Position numbers and translations under genes: made by a program. A stretch of 64,000 nucleotides of DNA, from NCBI GenBank assembly GCA_963844715.1, contig CAWJPJ010000006.1:1-64000 (forward strand), read 5' to 3'. The notes below the pieces were generated by a model. That model saw nothing but the letters and a program-made list of their open reading frames with translations. It ran no database searches and was not told the origin of the DNA. Every line of letters begins with the position of its first letter. Positions within the stretch are counted from its first letter, which is position 1. Positions 6,001-43,526 of this stretch are shown here, piece by piece. Origin of the DNA: an uncultured Phycisphaerales bacterium. GTDB lineage: Bacteria; Planctomycetota; Phycisphaerae; Tepidisphaerales; Tepidisphaeraceae.

Positions 6001-9000
6001 TCATTTCCACGACCACCGGTACGGTCACCACTTTGAACAACGCGACCCTTGTGTCGGGCGTCACCACCAGCACCGATTACAACGCCGCGGGCCAGGTGGA
6101 ATCGACCACCGATGAATACGGCCAGGTCACCCAATACGTCTACGACGCCGACGGCAACCTCATCCAAACCCTCTATCCCGACAACACCAGCACGGAAACC
6201 ATCTACGATTCGGAAGGCAGAGCGATCCTGACCACCGATCGGCATGTCGTGGGCGACTCCGGGAATGCCACACTCACTGTTTATAACAGCCTGGGCCAGG
6301 TTGCCGAGACCCAGCGCGTCGCCGACGTCGCCGCAACCGTCGGCGCGGTATCCGGAATGACTGGTGTGGACCAGGTCACGGCGGTCAGCGGCGCCGGCCT
6401 CACTTCCACGGAAACCGGCGGGATTTACGTCTGGGCCGTGAACCCGACTTTCACCGGCTGGTTCTCGCAGACCAGCACCACCTATAACCCCGACGGCACG
6501 GTCGCCAGCACCACGGATGCGGACGGCCTGACCACGGACTACACCTATTATCCCAACGGCCAGCAGGAAAGCGTCACGCAGGTGAGCGTTCCGGTGTATG
6601 GCGCGACTGGCGGCGTCGAAAACCTCACCACGACCTACCAGTACAACTCCATGGGCCAGCAGAGCGACGTGACCGATCCCCTCGGCAACACGACCTCGTA
6701 TGAATATGATCCCCTCGGCCGGCTGATCTCCACCGGCTACGCCCCGGCGGTCAGCGTGGGGTCCACCTCCCTCGTCTCGACCACGACCAGCGAAACCTAC
6801 GATCCGGCGGGGAATAAGATCACCGAGACGGATCAGCTTGGCCGGGTCACGCAGTATAAGTATGACGATGCCGGCGATCTGATTGAAGTGGATCAGCCGG
6901 AGGTTTTGAACCCGGCCACCAATACGATGACCCCGCCGACGACGAGTTACGTCTACGATCAGTACGGCGACGAGTTGATGCAGATCGACGCCAACGAACA
7001 GGCGGCGTATCAGGCCTGGATCAGCGCCGGCAACACGCCGGAAAGCTTCGCCGGCCCGGCCACGCGGTATACCTACAATGCCCTCGGCCAGGAAACCTCG
7101 GAAACGCTCCCCGACGGCGAGCAGGAAACGACCCAGTACGATCAATTCGGGCGTGTTTCCTACTCCGTCGACTTCGACGGGAACGTGACGGCTTACACCT
7201 ACGACGACTCCGCCACCGGCGACGGCCGCGTGACGGGAGAATATTTCTTCCTCCCCGGTGTCGTGTTCGAAAGCAACAGCGGCGCCGTCATCACGACGAA
7301 CGCGTCGGAGAGCACAACTTACACTTACACCTTGCTCGGGCAGCAGGAGAGCGTGACCGACTCGAGTCCCACCGCGCCTATACCGCCGATGGCGCGACGA
7401 CTTACACATACGACGCCAGTGGTAACGTGATTGAGGAAAACACGCCGGAAGGGATTATCAATTATTATTACAATGCCCTGAACCAGCAGACGGACATGTG
7501 GACGGGGAACGTCACGTATGCCAATCGCGACACCGCCGAGACGTGGACGCAATATGGCTACGATTCCCTCGGCCGCCTGACCACAGTGACCCAAAGCCGC
7601 CTCAATGACCAAACCGTGAATCTGGTGACCACCTACGCCTACGACGCCAACGGCAACAAAGCCTACGAAATGGACCCTAATGGGGACATCACCACGTATG
7701 TATATGATGCACAGAATCGCCTCACCGGCGAGTTGGTCAAGAATGGCAGCACGACGCTTTATAGCGGCAGTTACATCCTCAACGCCGACGGCACCAGAAA
7801 GTCCGACTCCGAGACGGAGTTACAGCCCGGCGGGACCACGGCGACCCTATCTACGACATGGACGTATGACGCCCTGGACCGGCTGACGGGGGAGACGATC
7901 ACCAGCAGCTTGTCGGGCGGAAGCCAGACCGAGACCTGGTCGTACGATATGGACGGCAACCGGGTGAAGCAGGTCAAGGTCGCCGGCGGCGTGACCGACA
8001 CCACGACTTACACGTACAACGGCGACGACCAGATGACCCAACAGGTGGACAGCGCCACCGGGACCACCACGTTCGGGTATGACGCCAATGGCAGCCAGAC
8101 CAGCAGCACCAATGGCAGCGCCGTCACGACGTACGCGTACAATGTGCGCAACCAGCTCAGCAGCGTCACGACCGGCGGCGTGACGACCAGCTACCAATAT
8201 GATGACTCCGGTAACCGGGTGAGCGAGACGACCGGCGGCACGACGACTTACTACCTGATCGACGCCAACAACCCGACCGGCTATCCCAAGCCGATCGAGC
8301 AGTGGGTCAGCACGACGGGCAGCAGGTCCACCGCCACGTTGAGCATGAGCTACATCATCGGCGACCGGGTGCTGGCGCAGGCGAACAGCGGCGGCGCGGT
8401 GAGCTACCTGCTGGTCGATGGCCAGGACAACACGCGGGCGCTGGTCAACTCGTCGGGCGCGGTGACGGCGGTGTTCAACTATGACGCCTTCGGCAACCCC
8501 ATCGGCTCGTGGAGTCTGACCACCGCGCCGACGACGATCCTGTTCCAGCAGACGATGGTTGACCCGGCTTCGGGGTTGAACTTCGACGGGGGTCGTGAGG
8601 AAAAGATCGGGCAGGACAGCTTCATCGAAGCCGACCCGCCAGGTTACAGCAGCAACCAGAATCCGATCACGCTGAACTCGTACCTGCTGGACGGCGCGGA
8701 TTCGATCAACATGGTGGACTCGAGCGGACACGACTTTGGTCTAGGCGACATCTTATTGTCTGCCGGCATTGACTCCGAATTAGATTCAATTGAGTTCACC
8801 GGCTTCTCGGCGGCCTTCAAAACGGTACAAGGCGTTCAGGATGGAGAAAGCGCGAACCAGATTTTTGAAGGCTTCCTTATCGACCAAGCGCTCCAGGTCA
8901 CCGCGATCGTCGGCCTCGCTGCTGCCGGCAAATTGCTTGGCGGGCTAATAGATGGCAGTTTAGCAACAGCGCTTACTAACGAAGCTTCAAACCCTGCGGA

Positions 9001-9457
9001 GCAAGCGACAACGCTGGCGGAAAGTGAAATAGCAAACTCATTCTCCAACTTGGGAGCCGGGTTTGCCGAGAATAATGCGACCGCGCTGAATGAGTTCCCG
9101 GCTGGCTCAGCCTTCTCCGGTGTATACAATCCAGAGACAGGGCGCTTTCTGGCATACCCGAGCGGCGATACCTTGCTGGCTGATGGATCAGTTCCGCTGA
9201 ACAGGGTTGCGCGAAGAGCCGGTCACGGCATCGTCAATAACGTGTTCAGCCAACTGATCGGGGTAGACCCTACTTCAAATCTGGGCTTTACGTTATTCCG
9301 GGAAGACGATGGGACGTTCTCCGTCGAATGGTTTTCTGGCAGTGTCAATGGTCCGAACCCATCATTCGAAGGACCTATAGTGCCAGTGTCGATGCGGCCG
9401 CAGGTCATCAATGCGATTGAAAATGCAACCGGGCGCACTGTTACATCAGAGGAGTAA
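1..9457 (+). CDS. Giant Rhs/YD-repeat polymorphic toxin (5' end outside window; split by indels). SdrD-B-like and Ig-like domains, FN3 repeats, Rhs core, C-terminal Ntox43-like toxin.
   Basis: Consecutive ORFs 70-429, 446-1774, 1701-3467, 3401-5767, 5403-7430 and 7427-9457 form one domain series: DTDGNGQWDPGEP (SdrB-like), PTGLTAT...YYY.V.A (FN3), ISRTYDS, many YDxxGN repeats, cleavage-type motif NMVDSSGHD. The tip FSGVYNPETG...RRAGH...WFSGSVN resembles Ntox43 from memory. The paralog at 38.9 kb lacks the ~7375 frameshift. Confidence 0.88.
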
Positions 9458-9906
9458 TGGATATGGCTATTCAGGTCAGTGGTCTTCCCCTTCCGGCCGC
9501 TCTAGTGGCCGCATTGGAAAACGGCGTCTGGCAGACGCCTAGAACCCCGACTGTGTGGCAATCGCTCTTCCCGCACACAAAGGCGCGTCATGCTAAACTG
9601 TATAGTCTGAAAATGATCCAAAGCGAGAATGCTTCTTGGCCCAATGAGTCACGTCCTTTCTATGTTGGACGGGCGGACGAACATCGTCCGCCCGGTGACA
9701 TCGACCCTGCCAAGTCGCTTCTGATTGCCGATCTCGGTCCCGACAAGATGATTGCCTTGGATTACCGGGAGTCGTCGAGTCGCCCGTCAGTTCTGTATAT
9801 TACTGATGACCCGGATGGGTCAACTCGGTGGATTAGAGTTGCGCCCGACATCGAAACATTCATTCGCGCACTCGGCCTCGAAGCGGTGGGAACCCAAACG
9901 GGTTGA
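9457..9906 (+). CDS. SMI1/KNR4 (SUKH) family immunity protein
   Basis: Coupled to the toxin stop (TAATG). LPLP near the N-terminus and IALDYR...PSV...VAPDIETFI at the C-terminus fit SUKH. Confidence 0.8.
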   Translation: MDMAIQVSGLPLPAALVAALENGVWQTPRTPTVWQSLFPHTKARHAKLYSLKMIQSENASWPNESRPFYVGRADEHRPPGDIDPAKSLLIADLGPDKMIALDYRESSSRPSVLYITDDPDGSTRWIRVAPDIETFIRALGLEAVGTQTG

Positions 9907-9947
9907 ACTGCGCACCATCCTGCGTTAGGTCTTCTCCTCATCACCCT

Positions 9948-10288
9948 TCTATGAGCCGAGCCGTGTCAAGTGTGTTGACGTTGCCAGGGAGCGAGTCGGT
10001 CGTTTTAACCTTCTATTCAGAGCTTCCGCGTCCGGCATGGCGGAAGGGCAAGCCCTCCGTTTGTGCCGGGAATCGCGGGCCTATTCAACTGTACAATGCG
10101 GCAGGATGCGGAGGGCAAGCCCTCCGAATGCCCGCCAGCGCGACGCCCATTCTGTAGCGCGAGCTTTGCGAAGGGTTTTGCGCCTCCGATGGCTCAGGGA
10201 CGACAACGGGCTGTCGCTGATGACGACCGGCAAACTCCGCCAACGCAACATCATTGACCTTTCCTCTTTAGCTGCCTTCTTCCGATCA
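9948..10288 (-). ncRNA. Predicted bridge/seekRNA region of IS element A
   Basis: Minus strand carries GTCGTCCCT (10204-10196) and GCTACAG (10158-10152), matching both halves of target GTCGTCC-CT-GTAGC, plus ATAGAAG (10016-10010), matching the IS end and core. Transcript boundaries unknown. Confidence 0.75.
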
Positions 10289-11365
10289 TCACGCCGGCGT
10301 CGGCATTCCCGTCGCCGCCGCGTGGTCTTTCCAATCGGTTCCATCGCGCAACATGGCCCACAGCTTGACCAGCAGCCTCCGGGCCACGGCGACGATGGCA
10401 ATCTTCTTTCGCTTGTCGCTGCCGCGGCGGACGTTCTCATACACCTGCTTCATCCAGGTGTTGGCACGCACGCCCAGCCAGGCGACCTCCACCAGCAATC
10501 CCCGCAGCAGGCGGTTGCCGGCGTGGCTGATGTGGCCCTGGCGATCGCTTTCGCCGCTCTGCCAGCGCCGTGGTGTCAGGCCCGAATAGCTGCTGACCTG
10601 CCGGGCACTCTTGAAACGATGGGGATCGTCGATGATCGTGACCACCGCCTCGCTGAGGCGCGGGCCGACCCACGGGGCGGTCCTCAATTGCCTGACGCGC
10701 TGATCCGCCCTGGCCAGTTCCGCCAGCTTCAATTCCACCTGCCTGATCTGTTCTTCCAATCCCTCCAGCAGCTTGAGTTCCACATGCAACTGGAAACGCC
10801 ACAACTGTTCCGCCGGCGCTGACGCATCCTGCGCCGCCTTGCTCCATTCGACGATTCCCGCCGCCGCCCAGGCTTTGTCACCGGCGGGCAGCTTCAAACC
10901 CTGGCGCTCGAAGATGGCGCGGATGTTGTTCTTGATCATGGTTCTTCGGCCCACCAGGCCGTGGCGGTATTCGATAAACGACCGCCATTGCCTCACCTTC
11001 GTCGCCGGCATGTGGACCGTCGGCAGGCATCCCATCTCCGACATCTGCGCCAGCTTCAGGGCATCGGTGCGGTCGGTCTTGTTCTTCACCAGCTTCCACT
11101 GCCAACGCTGGTCGTTGGCGTTGGCGACCTGGATCGGGATGCCCAGTGTTTCGGCTAGGTCGTGCACCCATCCCGCCGCCGGTCCCGCCTCAATCACCAG
11201 GCGGTCGGGGGCGCGGTGGGTGAGCAAGTCGTGAATGGCAGCGGGATCAGTGGCCACCTTGCCGAACTCATGTTCGGCGGCTTTGCCTTCCATCGTGCCG
11301 TGATCGGTGATGTAATCCACAAAAACGCTCTTGTTCTTACCGAGATCGATGGCGAGAATCTTCAT
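10289..11365 (-). CDS. IS110 family DEDD transposase/recombinase
   Basis: MKILAIDLGK, VIEAG, KTDRTDA and SYSGLTP motifs; intact frame. Confidence 0.93.
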   Translation of the reverse strand: MKILAIDLGKNKSVFVDYITDHGTMEGKAAEHEFGKVATDPAAIHDLLTHRAPDRLVIEAGPAAGWVHDLAETLGIPIQVANANDQRWQWKLVKNKTDRTDALKLAQMSEMGCLPTVHMPATKVRQWRSFIEYRHGLVGRRTMIKNNIRAIFERQGLKLPAGDKAWAAAGIVEWSKAAQDASAPAEQLWRFQLHVELKLLEGLEEQIRQVELKLAELARADQRVRQLRTAPWVGPRLSEAVVTIIDDPHRFKSARQVSSYSGLTPRRWQSGESDRQGHISHAGNRLLRGLLVEVAWLGVRANTWMKQVYENVRRGSDKRKKIAIVAVARRLLVKLWAMLRDGTDWKDHAAATGMPTPA

Positions 11366-11490
11366 GGCCGAGTCCTTTCTCAAAGGATGACGTTTGAGCC
11401 GCCCCACGCGGGGTGAGCTCGTGTAATAACCGGAGATTTTATGCTCCGTGTTCAACGTCCCGAGGAAGGCTCGGCTTCATAGTTTCTGTA

Positions 11491-11560
11491 GCTCCGTCGC
11501 GTCGGCGTCGGCCCTCGCCCAGGAGCGCAGCGCCGGGGGCCGATGACGAGGCGATGGAGC
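11491..11560 (+). repeat. Conserved 27-bp-stem hairpin at the element left end (also 23569-23638 and 34075-34146)
   Basis: GCTCCGTCGCGTCGGCGTCGGCCCTCG pairs with CGGGGGCCGATGACGAGGCGATGGAGC; three copies in the window. Confidence 0.85.
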
Positions 11561-11714
11561 GCAAGGGCGATGATTCCCTGGTACCTCCAGAGCGGAGCGC
11601 TGAGGCTTCCGCTGAATCGGGATCGGCGGCTAAAGAAAAAACCGAGTGGTCCACCGCGCCCGCCGGCGTGCGCGTGTTGAGCGTTCAACCCACTTCTTTT
11701 TTAGCCGCGGTTGT

Positions 11715-12086
11715 TCAGGATGCTTTGGCCAGTGAGTTGATGAGACGAATGACGGCGCGCTGATCCTTGTGAGGCAGGCGCGTGACCTGGCGGAACTTCT
11801 TCCAGAGCCGGCGCACGTTGGGATCGTCCTGCTCGCTTCTTCCTTTAGTCGTCTTGCCGTTCTTCATGCCAAGCAGTTCATCGGCGCTGACGCCCAGGGC
11901 GTCGGCCAGTCTGATGATCGCGTCCACCGGGGGATAGTCGGCTTCGTTCTCGTAGTAGGTGATGGCGCGTTGCGTCGTGCCCAACGTCTGCGCGAGTTGG
12001 ACCTGGGTGATGTTGCGGGCCTTGCGCAGCTCGGCCAGCCGCCGACCAAAGCCGGTCTGTTCGGGTTGTCGGGCGATGCGTGGCAT
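11715..12086 (-). CDS. XRE-family HTH repressor (allele 1)
   Basis: RLAELRKARNITQVQLAQTLG...YYENE...LADALGVSADELLG; divergent from the primase gene. Start chosen by similarity to the other two XRE copies. Confidence 0.9.
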   Translation of the reverse strand: MPRIARQPEQTGFGRRLAELRKARNITQVQLAQTLGTTQRAITYYENEADYPPVDAIIRLADALGVSADELLGMKNGKTTKGRSEQDDPNVRRLWKKFRQVTRLPHKDQRAVIRLINSLAKAS

Positions 12087-12251
12087 GTCGTCGGTGATGG
12101 TAAACCGCATGGGAATCTTCTCCGCAAGAGGGGCGAGCGCTTGCAATATACGTTAACGCGGATACTCTCTTGCACGGATATTATCCATGAAAAATATTTT
12201 ACTTTCCAGCGGATATTGCTTGACCGGGTTCCACGGAAGGAAGGCAAAAGC

Positions 12252-15200
12252 ATGAAGCGCATCCCCGACGACGAGATTGAGCGGTTGAAGCGTGAGACGG
12301 ACCTGGCGGCGCTGGTGCGGGCGTCGGGGGTGGAGCTTGCGCCGCACGGGGCGGGCGGGGACCTGATCGGGCGTTGTCCGCTGCATGACGACCGCACGCC
12401 CTCCTTGGTGGTGACCGCATCGAAGGGGCTGTGGCACTGCCTGGGGGCGTGCGGCGTCGGGGGCAGCGCGATCGACTGGATCATGCGGACGCGCAAGACG
12501 GGGTTCCGCTACGCCATCGAAATCCTTCGGGAGATTAACGGCGCGGGCGCTGTCGCCGGCGGTGAGCCTGGTCGAACCGGGGGGACGGCGCCCGCGCCTT
12601 CTTCTTTGCCCAGGAGATTGCCCGCGCCGATCGCGTTCGACGCCGACGATCACCAGCTCATGCTGGAAGTGATCGAGTATTACCACAAGTGCTTGAAGCA
12701 GACGCCGGCGGCGCTGGCGTACCTGCAAAAGCGCGGGATCGGCAGCAGCGAAGCCGTCGAGCATTTTAGGATCGGCTTCGCGGACCGCACCCTGGGCCTG
12801 CGTCTTCCCAACAAGCAGGCGCAAGGCGGGAGCGGAGATCCGCGAGCGGTTGGAAAAGCTCGGCCTGTACCGGGACACCGGCCGCGAGCACTTCAACGGC
12901 TGCGTGGTGTTCCCGATCATCGACCCTCAAAGCGGCCGCGTGACGGAAATGTACGGGCGGAAGATCGGCCCGCAGTTCCGGGGCCTGCCGATTCATCTGT
13001 ACCTGCGCGGGGAGCACAAGGGGGTGTGGAACGAAAGCGCCCTGGCGGCGTGCGAGGAAGTGATCTTGTGCGAGTCGATCATCGACGCCTTGACGTTCTG
13101 GTGCGCGGGGATGCGCAACGTGACGTGCAGCTACGGGGTGCACGGCTTCACCGCCGATCACCTGGCCGCGTTCAAGCGGCACGGGATCAAGCGGGTTCTG
13201 ATCGCGTATGACCGTGACGACGCCGGCGAGAACGCCGCGGCGAAACTCTGGCCGCGACTGACGGCCGAGGGGATCGAGTGCTTCGGGGTGCAGTTCCCCA
13301 AGGGGATGGACGCCAACGAATACGCGCTGAAGCTCCTGCCGGCGAGCAAGAGTCTGGACCTGGTGGTGAGGCAAGCGCTGTGGCTCGGTAATCCCGGCGC
13401 GCCGGGATCGCGGCCGTCGCCGGCGATGACGGCGGAGATACAAGAGGCGGCTAAAGAAAAAAGTGAAGGGGCAGCGCCGGCGTTGTCGTCGTCATCGGAT
13501 GCGCTCGAGCCTTTGCCTTCCGATCCTCCAACATCCGCGCCGCCGGCGTCGTCACTTGATGCAACGAACGAAATGACCGAAGAAGAAACAACGGGTACGC
13601 CGGCGTCACACGATCACACGCCGGCGTGCTCACTCTCTGTTGATCCCGCGCCGTTGCCGGCGTTTGTTCCAGCCGCGGCCGTTCCCGCGCGCCGCCGGCG
13701 TTCCCGCCCCTGCCTTCCTCTTTAGCTGCTGATCCTGGCTTGCTCGATGCGCCGGAGTCTGAGCCGCCGGCGGCATCGCCGTTGCCGCGTGCTTCCGCGC
13801 CGCCGGAGGTGCCGGCGGAGGTCAAGGAACAGGAAATCATCATCACGCTGGAAGGCCGGCGTTACCGCATCCGGGGCATGAGCAAGAACCTGGGCTTTGA
13901 CGCGCTGAAGGTGAACGTGCTGGCCAGTTGCGGGGAACTGATGCACGTGGACACATTGGACCTGTACGCTCACCGCTCGCGCAAGCAGTTCGCGGCGGAC
14001 GCGGCGCGGGAGCTTCGGCTGGAGGAAACCTTGCTGCGCCACGACCTGGGCAAGGTGCTGCTCAAGCTGGAGGAGTTGCAGGAGAAGCAGATCGCCGAGG
14101 CCACCAAGCCGAAGGAAAAGACGGTGAAGATCACCGATGCGCAGGCGCGACGCGGCGCTGGAGCTTCTTAAATCGCCCGATCTGCTGGACCGCATCCTGG
14201 CCGACTTTGAGCGCTGCGGCGTGGTGGGCGAAGCCACCAACAAGCTGACGGGGTATCTGGCCGCCACGAGCCGCAAGCTGGAGCAACCGCTGGCGGTCGT
14301 GCTGCAATCCAGCAGCGCCGCCGGCAAATCCTCCCTGATGGAGGCGGTGCTGGCGATGCTGCCGCCGGAGGAAGTGACCAAGTTCAGCGCCATGACCGGG
14401 CAATCGCTGTTCTACATGCAGGGGTCGGACCTGCGCCACAAGGTGCTGGCGATTGTCGAGGAGGAAGGGGCGGAGCGCGCCAGCTACGCATTGAAGCTGC
14501 TGCAATCCGAGGGCGAGTTGACCATCGCCTCCACCGGTAAGGACCCGCAGACGGGCCGGCTCGTCACCCAGGAGTACCGTGTCGAGGGTCCGGTGATGAT
14601 CTTCCTGACGACGACGGCGGCGGAGATTGACGAGGAGTTATTAAACCGCTGCCTGGTGCTGAGCGTGAGCGAGGATCGCGAGCAGACGCGGGCCATTCAC
14701 ATCATGCAGCGCAAGCGCCAGACCTTGGCCGGCCTTCTGGAACAGCGGGAGCGCGCGGCGGTGCTCGCGGTGCACCGGGACGCGCAGCGGCTTTTGTATC
14801 CGGTGCTGGTGGCCAATCCCTTCGCGGACCGGCTGACGTTCCTGGACAGCCGCACGCGCAGCCGGCGGGACCATGTGAAATACCTGACGCTCATTCGCAC
14901 GGTCGCGCTCCTGCACCAGCACCAGCGGGAGCACAAGACGGTGGAGCATCCGCCGGCGTCGGGGCAGTTCGTGGAGTACATCGAGGTCACGCCGGGGGAC
15001 ATCGCCATCGCCAATCGGCTGACGCATGAAGTCCTGGGGCGCTCACTCGATGAGCTGGCCCCGCAGACCCGGCGCTTGTTGGTCATGCTCGATCAGCACG
15101 TCATGGGCGAGTGCCAGCGGCGGAAGATGCCGCGGAGTGATTACCGCTTCACGCGGCGGCAGGTGCGCACGTTCGCCGGCTGGACGGACTTCGTGGTGCG

Positions 15201-15649
15201 GACGCACCTGCAAAAGCTGGTGGACCTGGAGTACGTGCTGGTGCATCGCGGCGGGCGCGGTCAGTCGTTCGTGTACGAGCTTCTTTACGGCGGGGAAGGG
15301 ACTGACGGCAAACCGTTCGCCCTGGGCCTGATCGATCCCGACAGCCTGGGAAACTCCGCTTACGTTGAAAAGTTCGAGCATCAAAACAGCCGGTTCGAGG
15401 GGGGTTCGAGCCTCCATAGTGCCCCCATTGAGCCGGGTTCGTGCGCACGAAAGCGCCGAATCTCCCGGCAATCACGGGCCGGAATCCACGTCCAGCGCGG
15501 AAGCGGTCAAAATCGCGCCTCGGGAGACGCTTTCGGACGGCGCGCATCGTACCGATACATCAACGTACCCACCTTCTTCTTTAGCCGCCTCGACAAGCTC
15601 GGGACAGGCCGCCGATTCCAACGGCCAGGAGGTGGATCATGCCGCGTAG
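12252..15649 (+). CDS. CHC2 zinc finger-Toprim primase fused to AAA+/P-loop ATPase (frameshifted in assembly)
   Basis: [10 protein letters not shown]...WHCLGAC (CHC2); LCESIID and AYDRDDAG (Toprim); Pro/Ala linker; QSSSAAGKS (Walker A), LAIVEEE (Walker B), DEELLNR. Breaks differ from copy 2. Confidence 0.82.
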
Positions 15650-32474: not shown

Positions 32475-32531
32475 CTTTAACGGGCCGCTTGCTTCATCAA
32501 GCCAGTCGTAACATTCTCCCCCGTCGTCCCT

Positions 32532-34069
32532 TCTATGAGCCGAGCCGTGTCAAGTGTGTTGACGTTGCCAGGGAGCGAGTCGGTCGTTTTAACCTTCTAT
32601 TCAGAGCTTCCGCGTCCGGCATGGCGGAAGGGCAAGCCCTCCGTTTGTGCCGGGAATCGCGGGCCTATTCAACTGTACAATGCGGCAGGATGCGGAGGGC
32701 AAGCCCTCCGAATGCCCGCCAGCGCGACGCCCATTCTGTAGCGCGAGCTTTGCGAAGGGTTTTGCGCCTCCGATGGCTCAGGGACGACAACGGGCTGTCG
32801 CTGATGACGACCGGCAAACTCCGCCAACGCAACATCATTGACCTTTCCTCTTTAGCTGCCTTCTTCCGATCATCACGCCGGCGTCGGCATTCCCGTCGCC
32901 GCCGCGTGGTCTTTCCAATCGGTTCCGTCCGCAACATGGCCCACAGCTTGACCAGCAGCCTCCGGGCCACGGCGACGATGGCAATCTTCTTTCGCTTGTC
33001 GCTGCCGCGGCGGACGTTCTCATACACCTGCTTCATCCAGGTATTGGCACGCACGCCCAGCCAGGCGACCTCCACCAGCAATCCCCGCAGCAGGCGGTTG
33101 CCGGCGTGGCTGATGTGGCCCTGGCGATCGCTTTCGCCGCTCTGCCAGCGCCGTGGCGTCAGGCCCGAATAGCTGCTGACCTGCCGGGCACTCTTGAAAC
33201 GATGGGGATCGTCAATGATCGTGACCACCGCCTCGCTGAGGCGCGGGCCGACCCACGGGGCGGTCCTCAATTGCTTCACGCGCTGATCCGCCCTGGCCAG
33301 TTCCGCCAGCTTCAATTCCACCTGCCTGATCTGTTCTTCCAATCCCTCCAGCAGCTTGCAGTTCCACATGCAACTGGAAACAGCCACAACTGTTCCGCCG
33401 GCGCTGACGCATCCTGCGCCGCCTTGCTCCATTCGACGATTCCCGCCGCCGCCCAGGCTTTGTCACCGGCGGGCAGCTTCAAACCCTGGCGCTCGAAGAT
33501 GGCGCGGATGTTGTTCTTGATCATGGTTCTTCGGCCCACCAGGCCGTGGCGGTATTCGATAAACGACCGCCATTGCCTCACCTTCGTCGCCGGCACGTGG
33601 ACCGTCGGCAGGCATCCCATCTCCGACATCTGCGCCAGCTTCAGGGCATCGGTGCGGTCGGTCTTGTTCTTCACCAGCTTCCACTGCCAACGCTCGTCGT
33701 TGCCGTTGGCGACCTGGATCGGGATGCCCAGTGTTTCGGCTAGGTCGTGCACCCATCCTGCCGCCGGTCCCGCCTCAATCACCAGGCGATCGGGGGCGCG
33801 GTGGGTGAGCAAGTCGTGAATGGCAGCGGGATCAGTGGCCACCTTGCCGAACTCATGTTCGGCGGCTTTGCCTTCCATCGTGCCGTGATCGGTGATATAA
33901 TCCACAAAAACGCTCTTGTTCTTACCGAGATCGATAGCGAGAATCTTCATGGCCGAGTCCTTTCTCAAAGGATGACGTTTGAGCCGCCCCACGCGGGGTG
34001 AGCTCGTTAATAACCGGGGATTTTATGCTCCGTGTTCAACGTCCCGAGGAAGGCTCGGCTTCATAGTTT
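32532..34069 (-). mobile_element. IS1111-group element A, copy 2 (transposase 32873-33950, frameshifted)
   Basis: Near-identical to 9948-11485; CT core at 32530-31 and 34070-71. Confidence 0.92.
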
Positions 34070-34793
34070 CTGTAGCTCCGTCGCGTCGGCGTCGGCCCTC
34101 GCCCGTGGAGCGCACGCGCCGGGGGCCGACGCTGATGCGATGGAGCGGAAGGGCGACTCCCTGGTAGCTCCAGAGCGGAGCGCCGAGGTCCGGCTGTATC
34201 CTTCCACGTCCAGCCATGTCCAGCATCGCGCGGGTGCAACGCCGGCGTGCGCGCTGAAGCCCAACCCACTTCTTTTTTAGCTGCTGTAGCTGCCGCCGCC
34301 GTGTTCAAGACGCGCGGAATTATCCGGCTCTCTTGCCGGCGTGCTGCGCGGCCAGGGCGTCGATGAACTTCAACACGGCCTTTTGATCGTGGGCGGGGAA
34401 GCGCTCGAGCAATTGCATGCGCCGAAGCACGCGGCGGCTGACGCCGTTGCCGTTGGCTTTGTGGGATTGCGCCGGCGCGATGCCCAACAACTCATCGGCG
34501 CTGACGCCCAAAGCCTGGGCGAGTTGGCCGATCATCGCGGCGTGGGGCCTGACGCGGCCGCACTCATAGCTGGAGATAACGGCCTGGATCGTGCCGGCCT
34601 TCTCGGCCAGTTCGATCTGAGTGAAGCCGCGCTCTTTGCGCAGCCGCGCCATCCGCTGGCCGATGGTCTCGGCGTCGGTTCTGCTGCGCGTCGGGCTGTT
34701 GGCGATCCTGGGCATGGGCACAATTATACGGGCGACTGGGCGCGGGAGGGGTTGGGGACACCTTGCAAATACAATAGGACGTTGTAATACTGG
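34070..34793 (+). mobile_element. Left-end remnant of the primase/recombinase element (hairpin, XRE, part of the divergent promoter)
   Basis: Similarity to copy 2 ends after GGACGTTGTAATACTGG and is followed directly by an Rhs core. Confidence 0.8.
34320..34721 (-). CDS. XRE-family HTH repressor (allele-2 type)
   Basis: Close to the 23775-24170 protein. Confidence 0.9.
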   Translation of the reverse strand: MPMPRIANSPTRSRTDAETIGQRMARLRKERGFTQIELAEKAGTIQAVISSYECGRVRPHAAMIGQLAQALGVSADELLGIAPAQSHKANGNGVSRRVLRRMQLLERFPAHDQKAVLKFIDALAAQHAGKRAG

Positions 34794-36301
34794 CTACAAT
34801 GCGTATACCTATGACCTCGTCGGCAATCGAAAGTCGGACGTCCTAAGCGGAAGCGAGGACGGTACGGCCGGCACGACCACTTACTCATACAACAGCGATA
34901 ACGAACTGACCAGCCAAACCGTCGGTTCCACCACAACGACGTTCACGTTCGACAACAACGGCAGTCAATTGACCAGCACGACGGGAAGCAACGTCACAAC
35001 GAACACGTACAACGTTCGTAATGAACTAAACAGCGTTGCCACCGGCGGCTCGACCACCACCTATGTCTACAACGACGCAGGGAATCTTGTGCAGGAAACG
35101 ACGAGCGGGACGACGACTTACTATCTGGTCGATGACAACAATCCGACGGGGTATGCCAAGCCGATCGAGGTGCGGGTCGGGTCAGCGAGCGGCACGCCAA
35201 CCACGACGTACATCCTTGGTGACCGCGTCATCGGTCAGGCGAATAGCTCCGGCGCCGTGAGCTACTTGCTGACTGACGGCGAAGATAACACCCGCGCTCT
35301 CGTCAGCTCGTCGGGCACCATCACGGCTGCATACAACTACGATCCGTTCGGTGATCCGATTGGCTTTAGCCTCTCCACGGCCTCGACGCGGTTGCTGTTC
35401 CAGCAAACGATGTTCGATGCGCCGTCAGGGTTGAACATCTTCGGCGACGGTCAGCGCGAAGCAGAAGTCGGAGAGGACAACTTCATCGAGGCCGATTCCC
35501 CCGGATACAGCGACAACGTCGATCCATTAACGCTCAACGGATATCTATTGGACGGGGCCAATCCGATCAGCAACGTCGACCCCAGTGGGCACGATCTGAC
35601 CGACATTCTTGTGTCGTTAGGACTAAGCGAAACGATCGCATCGGCGACATCGGGATTCGCAATCAGAGCCGCTATTGGGGGAGCCACAAACGTCGCAATT
35701 CAATGGACATTGACGGCGACATTGACGCCCAACCAATATACCGTCCAGCAGGGCATCTATGATTTTTTAACAGGTGGACTAACGGCTGGCGCATCGAATG
35801 CTCTCATGGCACCACTCAAGTCCATCCTCGGTGGCCTCGGCTTGTCGGAAGCATTTCAGATCCTAGGCAGCGTGTCGGGAGGCTGGATTACTGCAGCAAT
35901 TGGTGACACTATTTCGTATGTTGGACGATCCGAACTATTTAGTCACGAGACACCCTCCGATAAAGAGATTGCCGAAGCCTTTGCATTCTCCCTTGTCGGC
36001 AACGCGATCGGAGGAACGGCAAGCAGCGCTATTCAGTCGCAATTTGCCGACAGCGCGAGAGGCAGCCCCAGAGCATGCTTTAACAGCGTACAATCAGTTT
36101 GAGGCCCGCATAAGCGGGAGCGGAAATGATTTTCTGGAGCTTGTATCTCAAGCTCTCGATCAGGGTTATCCTTATGCTCGGTCGCTGGGACTATATATTA
36201 TTGACAACGTGCAGCCAATTGCGAAGGCCATAGGTTATGGAGTCGAGGGTGCCGTCGATGCCGCGGCAGACTTGCTCAAGGAGGCAATCAACCAGCAATA
36301 G
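34793..36301 (+). CDS. Orphan Rhs cassette 4, hydrophobic helical tip (frameshift ~36070)
   Basis: Begins YNAYTYDLVGNR; DPSGHD; Gly/Ala-rich C-terminus. Confidence 0.75.
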
Positions 36302-37039: not shown

Positions 37040-40000
37040 GTGGCTAGTTGCCGACGCGCCTTTAACCCCGACGGCACCGTACAGAGCGCGACGGATGCGG
37101 ATGGCCTGACCACCGCTTACACCTATTATCCCAACGGCCAGCAGGAAACCGTGACGCAAGAATCTGTGTCGGTTTACAATGCAACCACGAGTACGACCAG
37201 CGACTTCAACAATTACGGCGTTCCCGCCGGGCTCTTGATCAGCGAGTCCAGCCTCGGGCCCACCGGCCAGATGGTGCAGCAGTCGTACAACTCCTACTAT
37301 GGCAATGATGTCGCCGCCTCCAGCCCCAGCTACGTGGCGGCCATTCCTTCCGGCAGCTTCGACGTGGCCGGCGAACTGGCCGGCACCACGGACGTCAGCG
37401 GCGTCACCCACTCTTACAATTATGACGCCGATGGGAATCAGATCAGCGACAGCTATGTCTGGCACGATCCTTCCGCTCCCAACGACCCCTCGCAGGACGA
37501 AATCGTCACCACCACAACCGTCTACGACGCCGCCGGGCGGGTCATTTCCACGACCACCGGTACGGTCACCACTTTGAACAACGCGACCCTTGTGTCGGGC
37601 GTCACCACCAGCACCGATTACAACGCCGCGGGCCAGGTGGAATCGACCACCGATGAATACGGCCAGGTCACCCAATACGTCTACGACGCCGACGGCAACC
37701 TCATCCAAACCCTCTATCCCGACAACACCAGCACGGAAACCATCTACGATTCGGAAGGCAGAGCGATCCTGACCACCGATCGGCATGTCGTGGGCGACTC
37801 CGGGAATGCCACACTCACTGTTTATAACAGCCTGGGCCAGGTTGCCGAGACCCAGCGCGTCGCCGACGTCGCCGCAACCGTCGGCGCGGTATCCGGAATG
37901 ACTGGTGTGGACCAGGTCACGGCGGTCAGCGGCGCCGGCCTCACTTCCACGGAAACCGGCGGGATTTACGTCTGGGCCGTGAACCCGACTTTCACCGGCT
38001 GGTTCTCGCAGACCAGCACCACCTATAACCCCGACGGCACGGTCGCCAGCACCACGGATGCGGACGGCCTGACCACGGACTACACCTATTATCCCAACGG
38101 CCAGCAGGAAAGCGTCACGCAGGTGAGCGTTCCGGTGTATGGCGCGACTGGCGGCGTCGAAAACCTCACCACGACCTACCAGTACAACTCCATGGGCCAG
38201 CAGAGCGACGTGACCGATCCCCTCGGCAACACGACCTCGTATGAATATGATCCCCTCGGCCGGCTGATCTCCACCGGCTACGCCCCGGCGGTCAGCGTGG
38301 GGTCCACCTCCCTCGTCTCGACCACGACCAGCGAAACCTACGATCCGGCGGGGAATAAGATCACCGAGACGGATCAGCTTGGCCGGGTCACGCAGTATAA
38401 GTATGACGATGCCGGCGATCTGATTGAAGTGGATCAGCCGGAGGTTTTGAACCCGGCCACCAATACGATGACCCCGCCGACGACGAGTTACGTCTACGAT
38501 CAGTACGGCGACGAGTTGATGCAGATCGACGCCAACGAACAGGCGGCGTATCAGGCCTGGATCAGCGCCGGCAACACGCCGGAAAGCTTCGCCGGCCCGG
38601 CCACGCGGTATACCTACAATGCCCTCGGCCAGGAAACCTCGGAAACGCTCCCCGACGGCGAGCAGGAAACGACCCAGTACGATCAATTCGGGCGTGTTTC
38701 CTACTCCGTCGACTTCGACGGGAACGTGACGGCTTACACCTACGACGACTCCGCCACCGGCGACGGCCGCGTGACGGGAGAATATTTCTTCCTCCCCGGT
38801 GTCGTGTTCGAAAGCAACAGCGGCGCCGTCATCACGACGAACGCGTCGGAGAGCACAACTTACACTTACACCTTGCTCGGGCAGCAGGAGAGCGTGACCG
38901 ACTCGAGTCCCACCGGCGCCTATACCGCCGATGGCGCGACGACTTACACATACGACGCCAGTGGTAACGTGATTGAGGAAAACACGCCGGAAGGGATTAT
39001 CAATTATTATTACAATGCCCTGAACCAGCAGACGGACATGTGGACGGGGAACGTCACGTATGCCAATCGCGACACCGCCGAGACGTGGACGCAATATGGC
39101 TACGATTCCCTCGGCCGCCTGACCACAGTGACCCAAAGCCGCCTCAATGACCAAACCGTGAATCTGGTGACCACCTACGCCTACGACGCCAACGGCAACA
39201 AAGCCTACGAAATGGACCCTAATGGGGACATCACCACGTATGTATATGATGCACAGAATCGCCTCACCGGCGAGTTGGTCAAGAATGGCAGCACGACGCT
39301 TTATAGCGTGACATACACGCTGAATAAGGACGGCACCCGCGCCAGCGCAACGGAGATGAACGGGTCGACTTCGATCAGCACCAGTTGGACCTACGACAAC
39401 CTCGACCGCCTGCTCGCCGAAACGATCGTCAGCGGCGGCACTTCAACCGATACCTATACCTACGATCTGGTCGGCAACATCGTCACCAAGAACCACGTCG
39501 TCGACGGCTCCGGGGCCGAAACAACGACGTATCACTACAACGGTGACAATGAACTTTACCAGCAGGTGGACAGCGTCACCGGTACGACCAACTTCACCTA
39601 CGACGCGAACGGAGACCAGACCGGCAGCACAGCGAGCACCACGATCACGACCTACACGTATGACCTCGAGAACAAGATGATCTCCGAAGCCGTCAACGGC
39701 GCGACGCAGGCGAGCTACATTTATGACGAGGCAGGCAACAGGGTTCAGGAGACCGTCGGCAGCACGACCAGTTACTACCTGACCGACGACGATAATCCGA
39801 CGGGTTATGCCGAGCCGTTGGAGGTCAGAACCTACACCGGCTCAACCCCATCCCTTGGTGCCGCGTCGCTGTCGATGACGTATCTGATTGGGGACAACGT
39901 TTTCGGGCAGGTGAACTCTTCCGGGACGGCCAGTTACTTCGTCATCGACGGCCACGGCAGCACCCGCGCTCTGGTCAGTTCTACAGGCTCGGTAACCGCC

Positions 40001-40956
40001 ACATTCAACTACTTTGCCTATGGCAACCCTTTGGGCTCCTGGAGCCTGAACACCGCCGGCACGATCTTTCTCTATGGCGGCGACGCCGTGTACGACCCCG
40101 CCAGCGGGCTGTACATGAACGGCGACGGCACGCGGGATCGGTCTGGGTTTGAGTTTATTCAGAGGGATACGAGCCTTGGGGAAAACGCGGATCCGCTTAG
40201 CCTCCACACGTATTTGTACGCGGATGCGGACTCGATCAACGGGTTTGATCCAAGCGGGCACGATGATCTCGATGATATCGAGAATTTTATTGGCAACTTT
40301 GCCATCGCGGCTTTCCAGTCTTCGACACCGTACATGCTATTGCATTACACCTATGAGAGTAATTTCATGCCGAATTGGAATAATGCCGTCGGCGATGTCA
40401 TGCATGGATTTGCTAGCATTGGGTTATCATTTCCCAGCGGGTCCGCGTCGGCGATCGCCGCTCAGATCTATCAAGGGTTGCAGAACTTTAACTATTTGCG
40501 CCAAATATCGCTTCGGTCAGTGTTTCGGGGGGTAAGCTTGCTTCCTTTACTATGAATGGACTACTGATGCAATACGGGATGTCGCGATTTAATGCTGCTA
40601 ATCCCACCGTGCAGCTGGTGCAGGGACCCGGCCAATACGAGCTCACAGGCGTGACTCTTGGGAGTCATATGCTCGTAGGCGTCCGTCGGTGGAGAGTGCT
40701 GATAATTCGGCAGTCGCCGCCGGTGCTTTCCGTCGAAACGGAGGCATATGAGCAGAACAGTAGCTATGCAAATGCGGCCGGCCGTTGGGCTCTCGGGCAA
40801 TCGGCACAATACGCGGTCTGGGACAACTATTTGAACAATATCGGGGCGGCTTGGGTTACAAAGGGTGCCACATTAACGCCTGCAAGGCATATCCCTGAAG
40901 TAGACGTCGGCGCTGTAAATCCGTGGAGGGCGCAGTTGCCGCTTACGCTACAGTAG
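37040..40956 (+). CDS. Long orphan Rhs cassette 5 (frameshift ~40530)
   Basis: 37193-39308 duplicates main gene 5652-7766, followed by a different distal core, DPSGHD and an unassigned tip. Confidence 0.85.
37193..39308 (+). repeat. 2.1-kb direct repeat of 5652-7766
   Basis: Identical by eye except one extra G (CACCGGCGCC vs CACCGCGCC). Confidence 0.93.
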
Positions 40957-40968
40957 AACTGAGGAACG

Positions 40969-41580
40969 TTGCGAACCTTTTTGATCATAGTTGCGAGCGT
41001 ACTATTGTCATTGTTAATTACCTTCGCAATACTTATTGCGTTGCCTCGCGCCATCTTGAATCATGAGGAGGATATGCTCGACCGTATGGCGAAGTGGCGG
41101 GATCAGGCAGTCGCAAGCCCGCACAGTCAGGAAGCGCTGAATGAGTTGTTGGGCGAGTTGCATTCGAGTGATGATATTGAGAGGGGGAACGCGGCTGCAT
41201 ACCTCGGCCAGGTTGGCAGTCGCGCACCTGATATCGCCACCTCCCTGGTTATGCCTCTCGTTCAGACTTTACAAAACGACGATCCGGGGGTCTCAAAATC
41301 GGCCGCCGAGGCGCTCGGTGAAATCGGTCCGGCGGCAATTCAAGCCGTGCCCGCCCTAATCGCATCTGTCGTGAAATACCCTAGTTCGAGCCCGGGGTAT
41401 GAATCGGCCCAGGCTTTGGGCGAAATTGCTGATCCGGGCGATTTGAAAGTGCATCAAGTACTAAATAACGCGGCTAGTGGAGGAGACCGATTAATGCAGT
41501 CGGACGCCCAGCAGGCGATTGACGCGCTCAAATCGCGCCGGCAGTCGGCCGTGACCCGGACTTCGCCGAAACCGGTGTAG
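40969..41580 (+). CDS. HEAT-repeat protein with N-terminal TM; putative immunity of cassette 5
   Basis: AAEALGEIGPAAIQAVPAL and SAQALGEI repeats; hydrophobic N-terminus. Confidence 0.75.
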   Translation: MRTFLIIVASVLLSLLITFAILIALPRAILNHEEDMLDRMAKWRDQAVASPHSQEALNELLGELHSSDDIERGNAAAYLGQVGSRAPDIATSLVMPLVQTLQNDDPGVSKSAAEALGEIGPAAIQAVPALIASVVKYPSSSPGYESAQALGEIADPGDLKVHQVLNNAASGGDRLMQSDAQQAIDALKSRRQSAVTRTSPKPV

Positions 41581-41688
41581 TGGCCCAGCACTTTGTATGG
41601 CGGTTTTGTTCTCAGGGTGTTAGGTATTTTTGGATACGTTGTAGCGGCCCGGCAGCTTGTCGGGCGGTTTTGTTCTCAGGGTGTTAGG
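41576..41688 (+). repeat. 64-bp unit, tandem here (second copy truncated); third copy at 49396-49459
   Basis: TGTAGYGGCCC...GGCGGTTTTGTTCTCAGGGTGTTAGGTATTTTTGGATACGT. Confidence 0.85.
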
Positions 41689-41837
41689 GCCTGTCTGATG
41701 AATCCAAAATCCTGAAATAGCGACGGATCATGGCGAGCTTGGCCATGGCCTGAAAGTTCACCGCCAGTTTCTCGTAACGCGTGCCCAGGCGGCGATTCTC
41801 CTTCATCCAATTCACGCAACGCTCCACCACGTTCCGC
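41687..41837 (-). pseudogene. IS5-family transposase 3' remnant
   Basis: Minus strand RNVVERCVNWMKENRRLGTRYEKLAVNFQAMAKLA...SDRP*. Confidence 0.8.
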
Positions 41838-43526
41838 GTCAGTTACATCCTCAACGCCGACGGCACCAGAAAGTCCGACGCCGAGACCGAGTTACAGCCC
41901 GGCGGGACCACGGCGACCCTATCTACGGCATGGACGTATGACGCCCTGGACCGGCTGACGGGCGAGGCGATCACCAGCAGCTTGTCGGGTGGAAGCCAGA
42001 CCGAGACCTGGTCGTACGATATGGACGGCAACCGGGTGAAGCAGGTCAAGGTCGCCGGCGGCGTGACCGACACCACGACTTACACGTACAACGGCGACGA
42101 CCAGATGACCCAACAGGTGGACAGCGCCACCGGGACCACCACGTTCGGGTATGACGCCAATGGCAGTCAGACGACCACGACGGTCGGCGGCACGGTCACC
42201 CAGACCGATTCCTACGACGTGCGGAACCGGCTCCAAAAGGTCGTCAACAGTTCAGGCACGACGACCTACGTTTATGACGACGCCGGAGACCGGGTTCAGG
42301 AGACGACCGGCAGCACGACGACCTACTACCTGATCGACGACAACAACCCGACCGGTTACGCCAAGCCGATTGAAGTGCGCGTCGGGTCGGCGACAGGCAC
42401 GCCCACCACCACGTACATCCTGGGCCTGGACGTGATCGGGCAGGCGAACAGCAGCGGCGCGGTCTCGTACCTGGTCATCGACGGCCGGGACGATACGCGG
42501 GCGCTGGTCAATTCCAGCGGAGCGGTGACCGCGACGTTCAACTACGATGCCTTCGGCAACCCGATCGGGTTCACCGCCGCGACCGCGCCGACGGTCTTCC
42601 TGTTCCAGCAGATGATGTTTGACGCGCCGTCGGGGACGAACTTCACCGAGAGCCGCCAGGAACCGCTGGGCGCGCCCTACTGGCTCGAAGCGGATTCGCC
42701 GGGATACAGCAACAATGACGATCCCCTGACGCTTAACGGCTACCTGTTTGATGGCGTGAATCCCATCAGCAACATCGATCCGAGTGGGCATGACTTCTCA
42801 TTAGGGGATATCCTGGTAACGGCCGGTATCAGCGCCACACTTATGGGCTCGCTATCGGGCGGTTTGGCTGCTGTAAGCGGCAGGAATGTAATTTACAACG
42901 CGGTTGTAGGCGCTGGCGGCGGTTTGGCTCTAGCTTCTGCGTTCTTTGATGGGCAATTGCCGGAGGTTGGAGCGAACGCGCTCGTGGTATCAGCCATGAC
43001 CTCAATTTTGCTGGCGACCCTTGATGCCGTCACGAAAGGTCGGAGTTACGTACAAAATCACTTGACCACCTACGAGAGTGTAGCGGTGGAAACCTTCTCA
43101 TGGGCTTCTATCTCAGAAGCGTGGTTTCCAGCAAAGAGCTATACGTCGTTAGATGGTAATCAGGACGAAGGGGTCGGAAAGCTCCTTCAGGATATAACTC
43201 TTGCGTTCGGACAAGGTGTAGCGGAAGGTGTGGCGTTGCTTGGTGATGTGTCATTGCTCGCCAGCGGCGCAATAACTCAATCGACAGCCAAGATTGAGCT
43301 GACGGATGCGTTTAAAACGATCGCGGGAAATCTTCTGTCGTCGGGCGTTTCTTTGGCAGTCGATACACTGTTCATGTCATCATTTGGAGGTGAGGTTCCC
43401 TCCGATGTTAAATCCGACGTCATTACGGATTTGAAGGGCGGCTTATTTTCCAATACGCTGTCGGCGGGAATCAACGACATTTGCAGCGAACTTGCCGACC
43501 TGATTGTTGATAAAGTCGCAGGCTAA
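41836..43526 (+). CDS. Orphan Rhs cassette 6, hydrophobic helical tip
   Basis: Begins VSYILNADG; mosaic of the other cores; DPSGHDFSLGDIL. Confidence 0.82.

Follow-up and report, generated by a model that had tools for sequence, protein, structure and literature searches.

A polymorphic toxin locus of the Rhs (YD-repeat) type from an uncultured Phycisphaerales bacterium was found in this study to contain junctions that converge on a single phosphodiester bond within the Rhs coding sequence. The DNA analyzed (the window) is the first 64 kb of contig C6 (CAWJPJ010000006.1) of assembly GCA_963844715.1, which comprises 4.55 Mb in 8 contigs and is labelled G000 below; its layout was read from a self-comparison, open reading frames (ORFs) and Pfam. 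It holds a main Rhs gene, a series of orphan cassettes (c1 to c6), in which the 3' part of an Rhs core is followed by a different C-terminal end, and copies of a backbone of ~6 kb that encodes a primase and a tyrosine recombinase. We suggest that an integrative element carrying the last ~375 codons of the Rhs shell, a toxin and an immunity gene integrates in frame at this site and displaces the old gene end downstream, an explanation that we hold to be probable, if by no means assured. Compared with the preliminary description of the locus, which was made from the sequence without database searches, the present analysis adds a candidate enzyme (the XerC/D-like recombinase of the element), a second hot spot and the cassette as part of the mobile unit.

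A common breakpoint in the Rhs core

Five junctions of the window lie on the bond TATA^GCG, hereafter site 1: those of the main gene (7763/4, cgctttata^GCGGCAGTTAC), c2 (21546/7, cgctttata^GCGTCAGTTAC), c5 (39305/6, cgctttata^GCGTGACATAC), c3 (29804/5, actcaactata^GCATGGCGTAC) and c6 (41835/6, ccacgttcc^GCGTCAGTTAC). The preliminary description had proposed that four breakpoints meet here within 10 bp, and each of them was recovered. The main gene and the core before c5 are 99.95% identical over 2116 columns (5652-7766 versus 37193-39308), and an alignment centered on the site gives 355/355 identical positions to the left (within 400 columns) and 79/145 to the right. For c2 and the main gene the picture is reversed, with 109 of 166 positions identical to the left (0.66, last 200 columns) and 140 of 145, then 541 of 555 (0.97), to the right. 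The suspicion that these two boundaries reflect one event is borne out in that both describe the junction in the main gene. Backbone copies 1 and 2 align with 96.2% identity (3979 columns) up to 17640/29802, after which copy 2 continues as ...GGACTCAACTA|TAGCATGGCGTACACTCTGAAC, creating TATAGC at 29801-29806, where c3 begins in the codon phase of the main gene (Y-S-M-A-Y-T-L-N versus Y-S-G-S-Y-I-L-N). The homology of c6 to the main gene and c2 begins at 41836 (GCGTCAG), equivalent to 7764 and 21547; 139/145 positions are identical to the right of the site and 53/194, which is no homology, to the left. The element that we call E2, which comprises c2 and backbone copy 2, is bounded by TATAGC on both sides (21543-21548 and 29801-29806), and joining its flanks preserves the reading frame.

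The 10-mer itself is without significance, its three copies being homologous positions: at up to one mismatch it has 3 matches in the window versus 1.71 expected, and 26 of 100 shuffled sequences reach 3. What is significant is one position common to junctions with different left partners. If ends were random over the 1.13 kb from the site to the core end, the chance that four other ends all fall within 4 nt of the first would be (4/1130)^4, or ~1.6e-10 by hand arithmetic. Three left partners are not Rhs sequences at all. That of c3 is the right end of the element, that of c6 is a truncated IS5-like transposase gene (IS, insertion sequence) and that on the metagenome contig L156 is the end of an unrelated ORF. 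On a conservative count there were at least three independent joinings in the window (core^cassette, right end^c3 and IS fragment^c6) and at least two more elsewhere, in the genome G356 and in L156. Since the sequences left of the site are not homologous, homologous recombination is unable to place the left crossover there, in agreement with the earlier expectation that it would not by itself focus at this position. We infer from the sequence comparisons a crossover at the site; a site-specific crossover inside coding sequence, as proposed before, is supported by the fixed breakpoint with non-homologous left partners and by its recurrence in related loci.

Scattered breakpoints in related loci would have spoken for another origin, and the opposite was observed. 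G356 is a second, separately assembled Phycisphaerales genome with two loci, C1 and C2 (L065, L143-L146), and its breakpoint lies at the same codon. The two loci are identical at 175/175 positions up to ...CCGCTGTTTG (CTGTTTG), after which C1 reads GCGTCAGTTAC and C2 reads AGCAGACGTAC, with 79/157 identical. When the main gene of G000 is compared with G356 C1, only 90/175 positions (51%) are identical in the 200 nt left of the site, versus 144/145 (99%) to the right. In the 54 codons after the site the two have 0 synonymous and 1 non-synonymous differences, and in the next 124 codons 33 synonymous and 31 non-synonymous differences. The main gene and c2 have 5 synonymous differences across the same 54 codons, so the segment is not frozen by constraint, and the identity between G000 and G356 is best read from these codon counts as a recent transfer whose left boundary is exactly the site. 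In L156, the Rhs homology of an orphan cassette starts from the same Tyr codon. A search of metagenome contigs with the exact 22-nt cassette start gave 0 matches, and G334, the nearest complete genome with related Rhs genes, has single genes and no array and is uninformative on breakpoints.

These comparisons bear on the published view that gene ends are exchanged by ordinary homologous recombination or gene conversion, in which case the boundary would be inherited from one old capture of an Rhs 3' part by the element. The 2.1-kb identical core duplication, toxin swaps at the core end (8692) and mosaic segments show homologous exchange of this kind, and the junction between right end and cassette could be inherited by descent. 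However, in host genes with left sides that are unrelated or 51-66% identical, the nucleotide where identity begins or ends is the same; a crossover by homology requires identical sequence on either side and would land anywhere right of the site rather than on it, and the recent transfer between G000 and G356 is bounded by the site. We therefore consider this explanation unlikely, at roughly one chance in eight.

A second hot spot and other boundaries

Cassettes c1 and c4 and the metagenome contig L152 start at a second hot spot, which lies 55 codons downstream of site 1 (site 2), or else at site 1 of a short core form that is without these 55 codons. Near-identity of G356 C1 to the main gene also stops 165 nt past site 1, the switch being inside ACCGA of ...CAGACCGA|CACTTAC, after which C1 resembles c3; the DNA homology of c3 to the main gene begins at 7928. 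The DNA at the two hot spots is paralogous (TATAGCGTCAGTTAC versus TACACCGACACTTAC). The motif TAYASCGWCASTTAC (up to 2 mismatches) has 6 matches in the 64 kb versus 0.39 expected, a number reached by 0 of 100 shuffles. Five of these matches are site 1 of the main gene, c2, c5 and c6 together with site 2 of c3, and the sixth, at 4898, is weak. As these sites served to derive the motif, the informative result is solely that the other ~30 core repeats do not contain it.

The third boundary is of an already known type. The aligned cores run to ...D(P/S)SGHD and then part into unrelated C-terminal domains; c2 and the main gene part at this core end, 8692, where contigs of three sequencing runs join a main-type core to a c1-type tail. 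In orphan-size Rhs ORFs from databases, homology starts also cluster near -125 to -132 and +143 codons from site 1, which could mark further hot spots or could come from BLAST starting its alignments at conserved repeat blocks.

It is also conceivable that breaks occur at random and that selection for a foldable Rhs shell focuses the junctions at repeat boundaries, with no enzyme involved. Both hot spots indeed lie at the same phase of the YD repeat, a few codons before Y-x-Y/L-D/N-x-x-G, and the database homology starts cluster at other repeat phases too, although the BLAST bias toward conserved blocks applies here. However, no such selection acts on orphan ends that adjoin non-coding DNA or an IS gene (c3, c6 and L156), yet these have the same start nucleotide, and among the ~30 repeats of the main core the motif, derived from the sites as it is, occurs only at these sites and at the weak match. 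We rate selection without an enzyme as improbable, at about one chance in ten.

The element attached to the cassettes

The backbone follows an Rhs core-3'/toxin/immunity cassette in 3/3 copies of the window and also in two other genomes. In G356 C1, 360 bp of the backbone left end (89-90% identical) remain after the cassette. Two contigs of G098, a genome from a different family of the phylum, have the order Rhs core (75%), different toxins and a 91%-identical backbone. The left edge of the backbone is sharp: the three copies of the window and the one of G356 turn unrelated ~25-30 nt before CTGTAGCTCC, and upstream of this edge each copy has a different toxin-immunity pair. In copy 1, these ~25-30 nt (~9920-9945) precede an inserted element, IS-A. 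Position 9944 was considered as the left end and rejected because it is the edge of IS-A; 17641-19230, considered as a diverged left end, is an IS110-family IS.

The primase of the backbone is of the DnaG type, with CHC2 zinc finger and Toprim domains. A PF27228 domain is fused to such a primase, in proteins of ~1000-1100 aa, in more than 100 of the 120 database relatives listed; a search of viral contigs with one of these primase-PF27228 proteins (P0005) found no relative. In the window, the PF27228 domain is part of a 926-aa ORF with the recombinase, a fusion that is perhaps the result of an assembly indel. At 12818 and 14144, the short-read contigs of 4/4 runs are without one base each, so the split of the primase frame (11769-13211, 12850-13725) is probably an assembly artefact. 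The same caution holds for the broken frames of the copy 2 recombinase and of the main Rhs gene. The latter is split into four overlapping frames (1701-3467, 3401-5767, 5403-7430 and 7427 onward), one break corresponding to the single nt by which it differs in length from the c5 copy, to which it is otherwise identical (2115 versus 2116 nt), and given the 1-nt indels elsewhere in the window these breaks may be assembly errors.

The recombinase gene lies ~720 bp from the right end and reads toward it. Its product has a tyrosine recombinase domain (Pfam Phage_integrase, PF00589, E=2.9e-38), and its nearest NCBIfam models are those of XerC/XerD (NF002331, E=4.7e-73); the match to XerD in the PDB has E=2.7e-36. 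Aligned with XerD (5dcf), the protein of copy 1 keeps R, K, H-x-x-R, H and Y. Although its catalytic domain is thus most similar to XerC/XerD, the scores are below the family cut-offs (246 versus 371; 168.8 versus 335 for TIGR02224 and 168 versus 329.6 for TIGR02225), which indicates that it is not XerC/XerD proper; unlike these, it is fused or adjacent to the primase-associated PF27228 domain and its proposed target is an Rhs repeat, not dif. The integron-integrase models are much further below their cut-offs (88 versus 265 and 65 versus 435).

About 320 bp after the end of the recombinase ORF (16917) starts a non-coding right-end module (RE) of ~400 bp, which terminates in ...CATCGGACTCAACTA and has three copies in the window; backbone copy 1 as a whole terminates in ...TCGGACTCAACTA. 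In translated form, this terminus is also found in front of Rhs cassettes in metagenomes. Among the 120 orphan-size relatives of the core 3' part listed, 9 ORFs have the leader [RC][VI][GR][LI]N, encoded by the RE terminus, then Y or F directly before the Rhs part; one of them is c1 of the window and eight are not, and P0126 was added to the latter by eye. The pattern has 0 matches in 49,204 control residues, those beyond position 120. After the leader, the site-1 form is found in two of the nine non-window ORFs and the short form in seven. In the DNA of L152, a diverged right-end module (RE') is joined to the cassette and the sequence is identical to c1 for 24 nt beyond CAACTA, then diverges. 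In the metagenome protein P0121, the RE-derived leader is fused, as ...DRVGLN|YSVSYILNADGTRKSD, to an 88%-identical core of the type found in the main gene end (cassette M). Four contig sizes (16257, 14869, 8410 and 8807) are common to the database matches of the cassette ORFs and of the primase proteins, a coincidence of sizes that suggests that both are on the same contigs.

A further short similarity stands at 21377-21392, immediately before the ATG of c2: GGATGTAACTAGTAT is identical at 12 of 15 positions to the right-end terminus of copy 1 plus the next four bases (GGACTCAACTAGTAT). The 450 nt upstream of c2 are not similar to the right-end modules beyond the shuffle level, and GGATGTAACTAGTAT may be a chance match or all that is left of a third junction, 50 codons upstream of site 1.

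Support from sequencing runs

Sequencing runs were available as contigs, for which depth is only a rough guide, and no run holds more than 0.30 of the query words. X1, X2 and X7 are peat/permafrost runs from three studies, and X6 is a soil run. In the three peat runs, depth is 10-50 over the backbone, 5-16 over 7735-8828 (the core 3' part), 1.3-1.9 over 7188-7734 (1-2 for the host core) and 0-0.24 over 8829-9922, with the toxin and IS-A at ~0. Such a profile agrees with a mobile unit of variable toxin content whose start is at or near the site. In X6, a loose end of 30 nt at 7626 is absent from the window.

We also considered that the junctions could be misassemblies of a repeat-rich metagenome-assembled genome. 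The 1-nt indels at 12818 and 14144 show that errors exist, and the short-read contigs listed do not bridge the site junctions and so count neither way on them. However, contigs of X6 differ from the window at 0-2 positions over 6115-7743, 8305-8982 and 9574-11014 and extend across the junction at 9944, and the same boundary is present in the separately assembled G356, in the JGI contigs L152 and L156 and in database ORFs. Misassembly is thus very improbable as an explanation of the breakpoint.

Proposed mechanism

A mechanism can be built from four observed features: the anatomy of the junctions, the fact that they recur in other assemblies, a backbone linked to the cassettes and a recombinase that looks intact. 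On the proposed reading, the locus would consist of several copies of an integrative and probably self-replicating element with the circular order RE, Rhs core 3' part (~375 codons), toxin, immunity, primase, PF27228 domain, Xer-like tyrosine recombinase and RE. The recombinase would be the crossover enzyme, exchanging strands between attP (RE^cassette, ...CAACTATA^GC...) and attB, one YD repeat of a resident Rhs gene (...CTTTATA^GCG...). The incoming cassette would thereby continue the reading frame of the host core (attL), the old gene end would be left as an orphan behind the right end of the element (attR), and repeated integration into attL, with excision and replication of the element, would give the array in this order of events.

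Four types of junction are found, all broken at the same Tyr/Ser codon, and they can be assigned to the model as follows. The main gene, c2 and G356 C1 would be of the attL type, and RE^c3 of the attR type. The core joined to c5, which forms one unbroken ORF of 1171 aa, would correspond to an attB-like state, and P0121 to an attP-like or tandem junction. The circular map is identical whether the cassette is drawn left of the backbone or right of RE. We place the element's own cargo on the left in the integrated state because copies 1 and 2, whose backbones are sisters (96%), also have sister core-3' segments on their left (97%) and the c3 segment right of copy 2 is distant, because G356 C1 keeps the order host core^cassette-immunity-backbone remnant and because the host genes themselves break at the site.

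Several observations weigh against this mechanism. A circular form, an empty attB and a spanning read were not seen; the contigs listed for X6, which are of the same strain, end at 7743 and start again at 8305. The left partner of c4, which is the interior of a backbone, and that of c6, which is the interior of an IS5-like gene, would not be expected from a strict attP x attB reaction, and the 2.1-kb core duplication requires a further event, probably a homologous one. The frame of the copy 2 recombinase is broken, which is hard to judge given the indel errors of the window, and no clear dyad-symmetric core site could be recognized by eye. Folded as RNA, RE has z = -0.73 and is thus not a structured RNA, and Rfam has 0 matches in 7000-45000 and hence none in RE; a small RNA or bridge RNA was dropped as a candidate for these reasons, and the role of RE is only assumed. 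Rhs is near the element in 4 of the 18 loci of relatives, in one of which (L047) it is a complete small Rhs gene downstream of the recombinases and not a cassette, and the closest backbone relatives by protein (G197, G229 and G009; 57-67% identity) have no Rhs in the available flanks, so the association belongs to a sub-lineage. The DNA of both element ends gave nothing significant against the 18 loci, and Pfam gave no informative match for the ORFs beside the closest backbone relative (L030).

In a broader form, the hypothesis would be that a self-replicating element family common in peat and soil Planctomycetota uses its Xer-like recombinase to integrate in frame into one Rhs YD repeat, delivering shell end, toxin and immunity, that site-specific rather than RecA-dependent recombination drives C-terminal displacement and orphan arrays in these bacteria, and that sister lineages aim at paralogous repeats. 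We give this generalization an even chance.

Insertion sequences at the element boundaries

Two insertion sequences, IS-A and IS-B, belong to the IS110 family, as judged from the DEDD_Tnp_IS110 N-domain and the Transposase_20 C-domain (Pfam) and from their inverted ends. IS-A occupies the identical position CGTCGTCC^CTGTAGCTCC in two backbone copies, and the site is empty in copy 2 (23563/23564) and in G356 C1. Its target contains CTGTAGC, which resembles CTATAGC of the RE^c3 junction. IS-B, whose transposase is in two frames, stands directly after the terminal CAACTA of copy 1 and its other flank is the start of RE', so its two flanks were not originally neighbours. A contig of the peat run X2 covers exactly 17641-19116 with 95% identity and has other flanks.

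IS110-family recombinases target specific sequences. The crossover might therefore be the work of another enzyme (host XerC/D, an IS110-family recombinase of the locus or a nuclease), with the primase-recombinase element only as a frequent neighbour or a passenger. This is suggested by the presence of the two IS110 elements exactly on element boundaries (IS-B after CAACTA, IS-A 3 nt from the CTGTAGC that resembles CTATAGC), by the c4 and c6 junctions, in which the Rhs side is joined to partners without a right end, and by the breakpoint of G356, which is without an intact element. However, the site is joined to the right end of the element in the window, in 9 metagenome ORFs and in L152, and G356 retains a backbone remnant beside its cassette. 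The IS elements are moreover absent from peat runs that hold cassette and backbone, the copy of IS-B in X2 having another context, and the empty IS-A sites of copy 2 and G356 speak in the same direction. We regard another enzyme as unlikely, though slightly less so than a purely homologous origin, and prefer the recombinase of the element.

Relation to known systems

The locus resembles the orphan arrays described by Jackson et al. (2009; PMC2935791), in which truncated core-toxin-immunity cassettes stand behind a full-length Rhs gene, all oriented alike. The passages of that paper on displacement let incoming ends push the old end downstream, with a circular (episomal) intermediate as a hypothesis, homologous recombination in the core and a variable fragment length, and they state explicitly that no integrase was known to accompany Rhs. 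The present fragments differ from that model in that their 5' ends are fixed at one nucleotide ~375 codons before the core end, their left partners are non-homologous and an element with recombinase and primase is attached. In the bee-gut bacteria Snodgrassella and Gilliamella, integrase-like genes recur beside Rhs arrays, and the authors suggested that integrases might capture or transfer Rhs sequences, a role left open in the relevant passages (Steele et al., 2017; PMC5727410); unlike for the present locus, these passages give no site, junction or element structure. In the full-text literature outside subscription journals, we found no prior description of a recombinase site inside an Rhs core. 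Rhs C-terminal displacement and orphan arrays were reportedly also treated by Koskiniemi et al. in 2014.

The proposed reaction shares features with several classes of site-specific systems. In islands at tRNA genes and in e14 and phage 21 in icd, attB lies inside a gene and the element brings the downstream part of the gene beside attP, so that the gene stays whole. In these cases the same product is restored, whereas here the product changes (shell end, toxin and immunity) and the displaced ends accumulate. In shufflons (Rci of R64) and tail-fibre invertases, a site-specific recombinase acting at short intragenic sites swaps C-terminal segments by inversion. Unlike shufflons, which have inverted sites and resident segments, the window has 7/7 Rhs segments and 3/3 backbones on the + strand, and the reaction would be integration and excision. 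As in integrons, a tyrosine recombinase gene adjoins the recombination site, followed by an array of promoterless cassettes. However, each of the present cassettes is a gene end that has to be fused to a host gene, and the whole platform appears to move; attC-like structures or inverted repeats were not noted in the locus, which sets it apart from integrons.

Since 2009, the arrival of Rhs toxin ends and the orphan arrays have been explained by hypothetical circles and homologous recombination. The locus offers a testable system in which the site within the coding sequence and the end of the element are both defined, an enzyme can be proposed and part of the shell belongs to the cargo, and it would give an enzymatic explanation for the building of arrays of spare Rhs toxin ends. 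If the mechanism is true, toxin repertoires could spread between species even where divergence of the Rhs genes prevents homologous exchange, each orphan array would record a succession of integrations and the element would be a natural case of in-frame delivery of protein domains by a recombinase.

Organization of the locus

The features of the locus are listed in Table 1. All matches to this Rhs family in the genome (10/10) are inside the window. RHS_repeat (Pfam) is matched by the main gene (E=1.7e-33 and 3.5e-22) and by c1, c2, c3, c5 and c6, and c4 was assigned by alignment. A SUKH-1 ORF follows the main cassette; the toxins and small ORFs of the other cassettes have no match in Pfam, and their toxin and immunity roles are putative.

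Table 1. Features of the Rhs locus in the window (^, crossover point)
Feature	Coordinates	Strand	Description
Main Rhs gene, overall	1701-9457	+	Followed by SUKH-1 immunity gene, 9457-9906
Main Rhs gene, N-terminal part and core up to the site	1701..7763	+	Pfam fn3, DUF6531, RHS_repeat
Site 1, main gene	7757..7774	+	Crossover 7763/7764, CTTTATA^GCGGCAGTTAC; putative attL type, host core^cassette
Cassette M	7764..9906	+	Last ~375 Rhs core codons (to ~8890), toxin (to 9457), SUKH-1 immunity (9457-9906)
IS-A, IS110-family IS	9946..11485	-	In left end of backbone copy 1; Pfam, inverted ends, empty site in copy 2
Backbone copy 1	11486..17640	+	Primase 11769-13725 (two frames), PF27228/Xer-like ORF 14137-16917, right-end module 17245-17640 (~400 bp)
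IS-B, second IS110-family IS	17641..19116	+	Directly after copy 1 right end; 13-nt inverted ends, Pfam
RE', lone diverged right-end module	19120..19551	+	~79% identical; terminates in GGAATCAACTA
Cassette c1	19552..20516	+	Starts at Tyr codon (TAT CCA TAC ACA TAT GAT); short form or site 2; frameshifted near core end
Diverged Rhs core before c2 site 1	21393..21546	+	50 codons; 66% identical to main gene
Element E2	21547..29804	+	8258 bp; cassette c2 and backbone copy 2 (left end ~23536, right end 29802)
Element E3	29805..34793	+	Cassette c3 (frameshifted near core end) and backbone copy 3 with IS-A (32530-34069); backbone truncated at 34793
Cassette c4, short form	34794..36102	+	Joined to backbone interior, ...ACTGG^CTACAATGCG
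Rhs core fragment	37040..39305	+	37193-39305 equals main gene 5652-7763 save one indel
Cassette c5	39306..41580	+	In frame with preceding core fragment (attB-like); then ORFs of 134 aa and 203 aa (HEAT repeats in the latter)
IS5-like DDE transposase gene, truncated C-terminal piece	41687..41835	-	Left partner of c6; DDE_Tnp_1_2 E=4.6e-5, below gathering score
Cassette c6	41836..43526	+	Homology begins with GCGTCAG, straight after crossover point

Several smaller Rhs pieces accompany the array. A 100-nt piece at 37059-37158, just before the duplicated core, is 86% identical to core 6481-6580. A c5-like fragment at 44117-44470 is 91% identical to 39726-40096 and adjoins an IS21, and a core piece at 50926-51161, 94% identical to 5565-5800, spans the left edge of the 2.1-kb duplication. 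Beside the IS5-like fragment, 41573-41688 holds two tandem repeats of ~64 nt with a related copy 8 kb downstream (49392-49462); these may be IS termini.

Downstream of c6 follow further IS elements and Rhs scraps. This IS-rich part contains an IS21-type pair of rve and IstB (44603-47012), an IS5-like DDE transposase (47721-48593, - strand) and an ORF with an rve domain (49588-50340, - strand). Beyond it are two very long ORFs, one of 1067 aa at 53193-56396 (+ strand) and one of 1344 aa at 59255-63289 (- strand).

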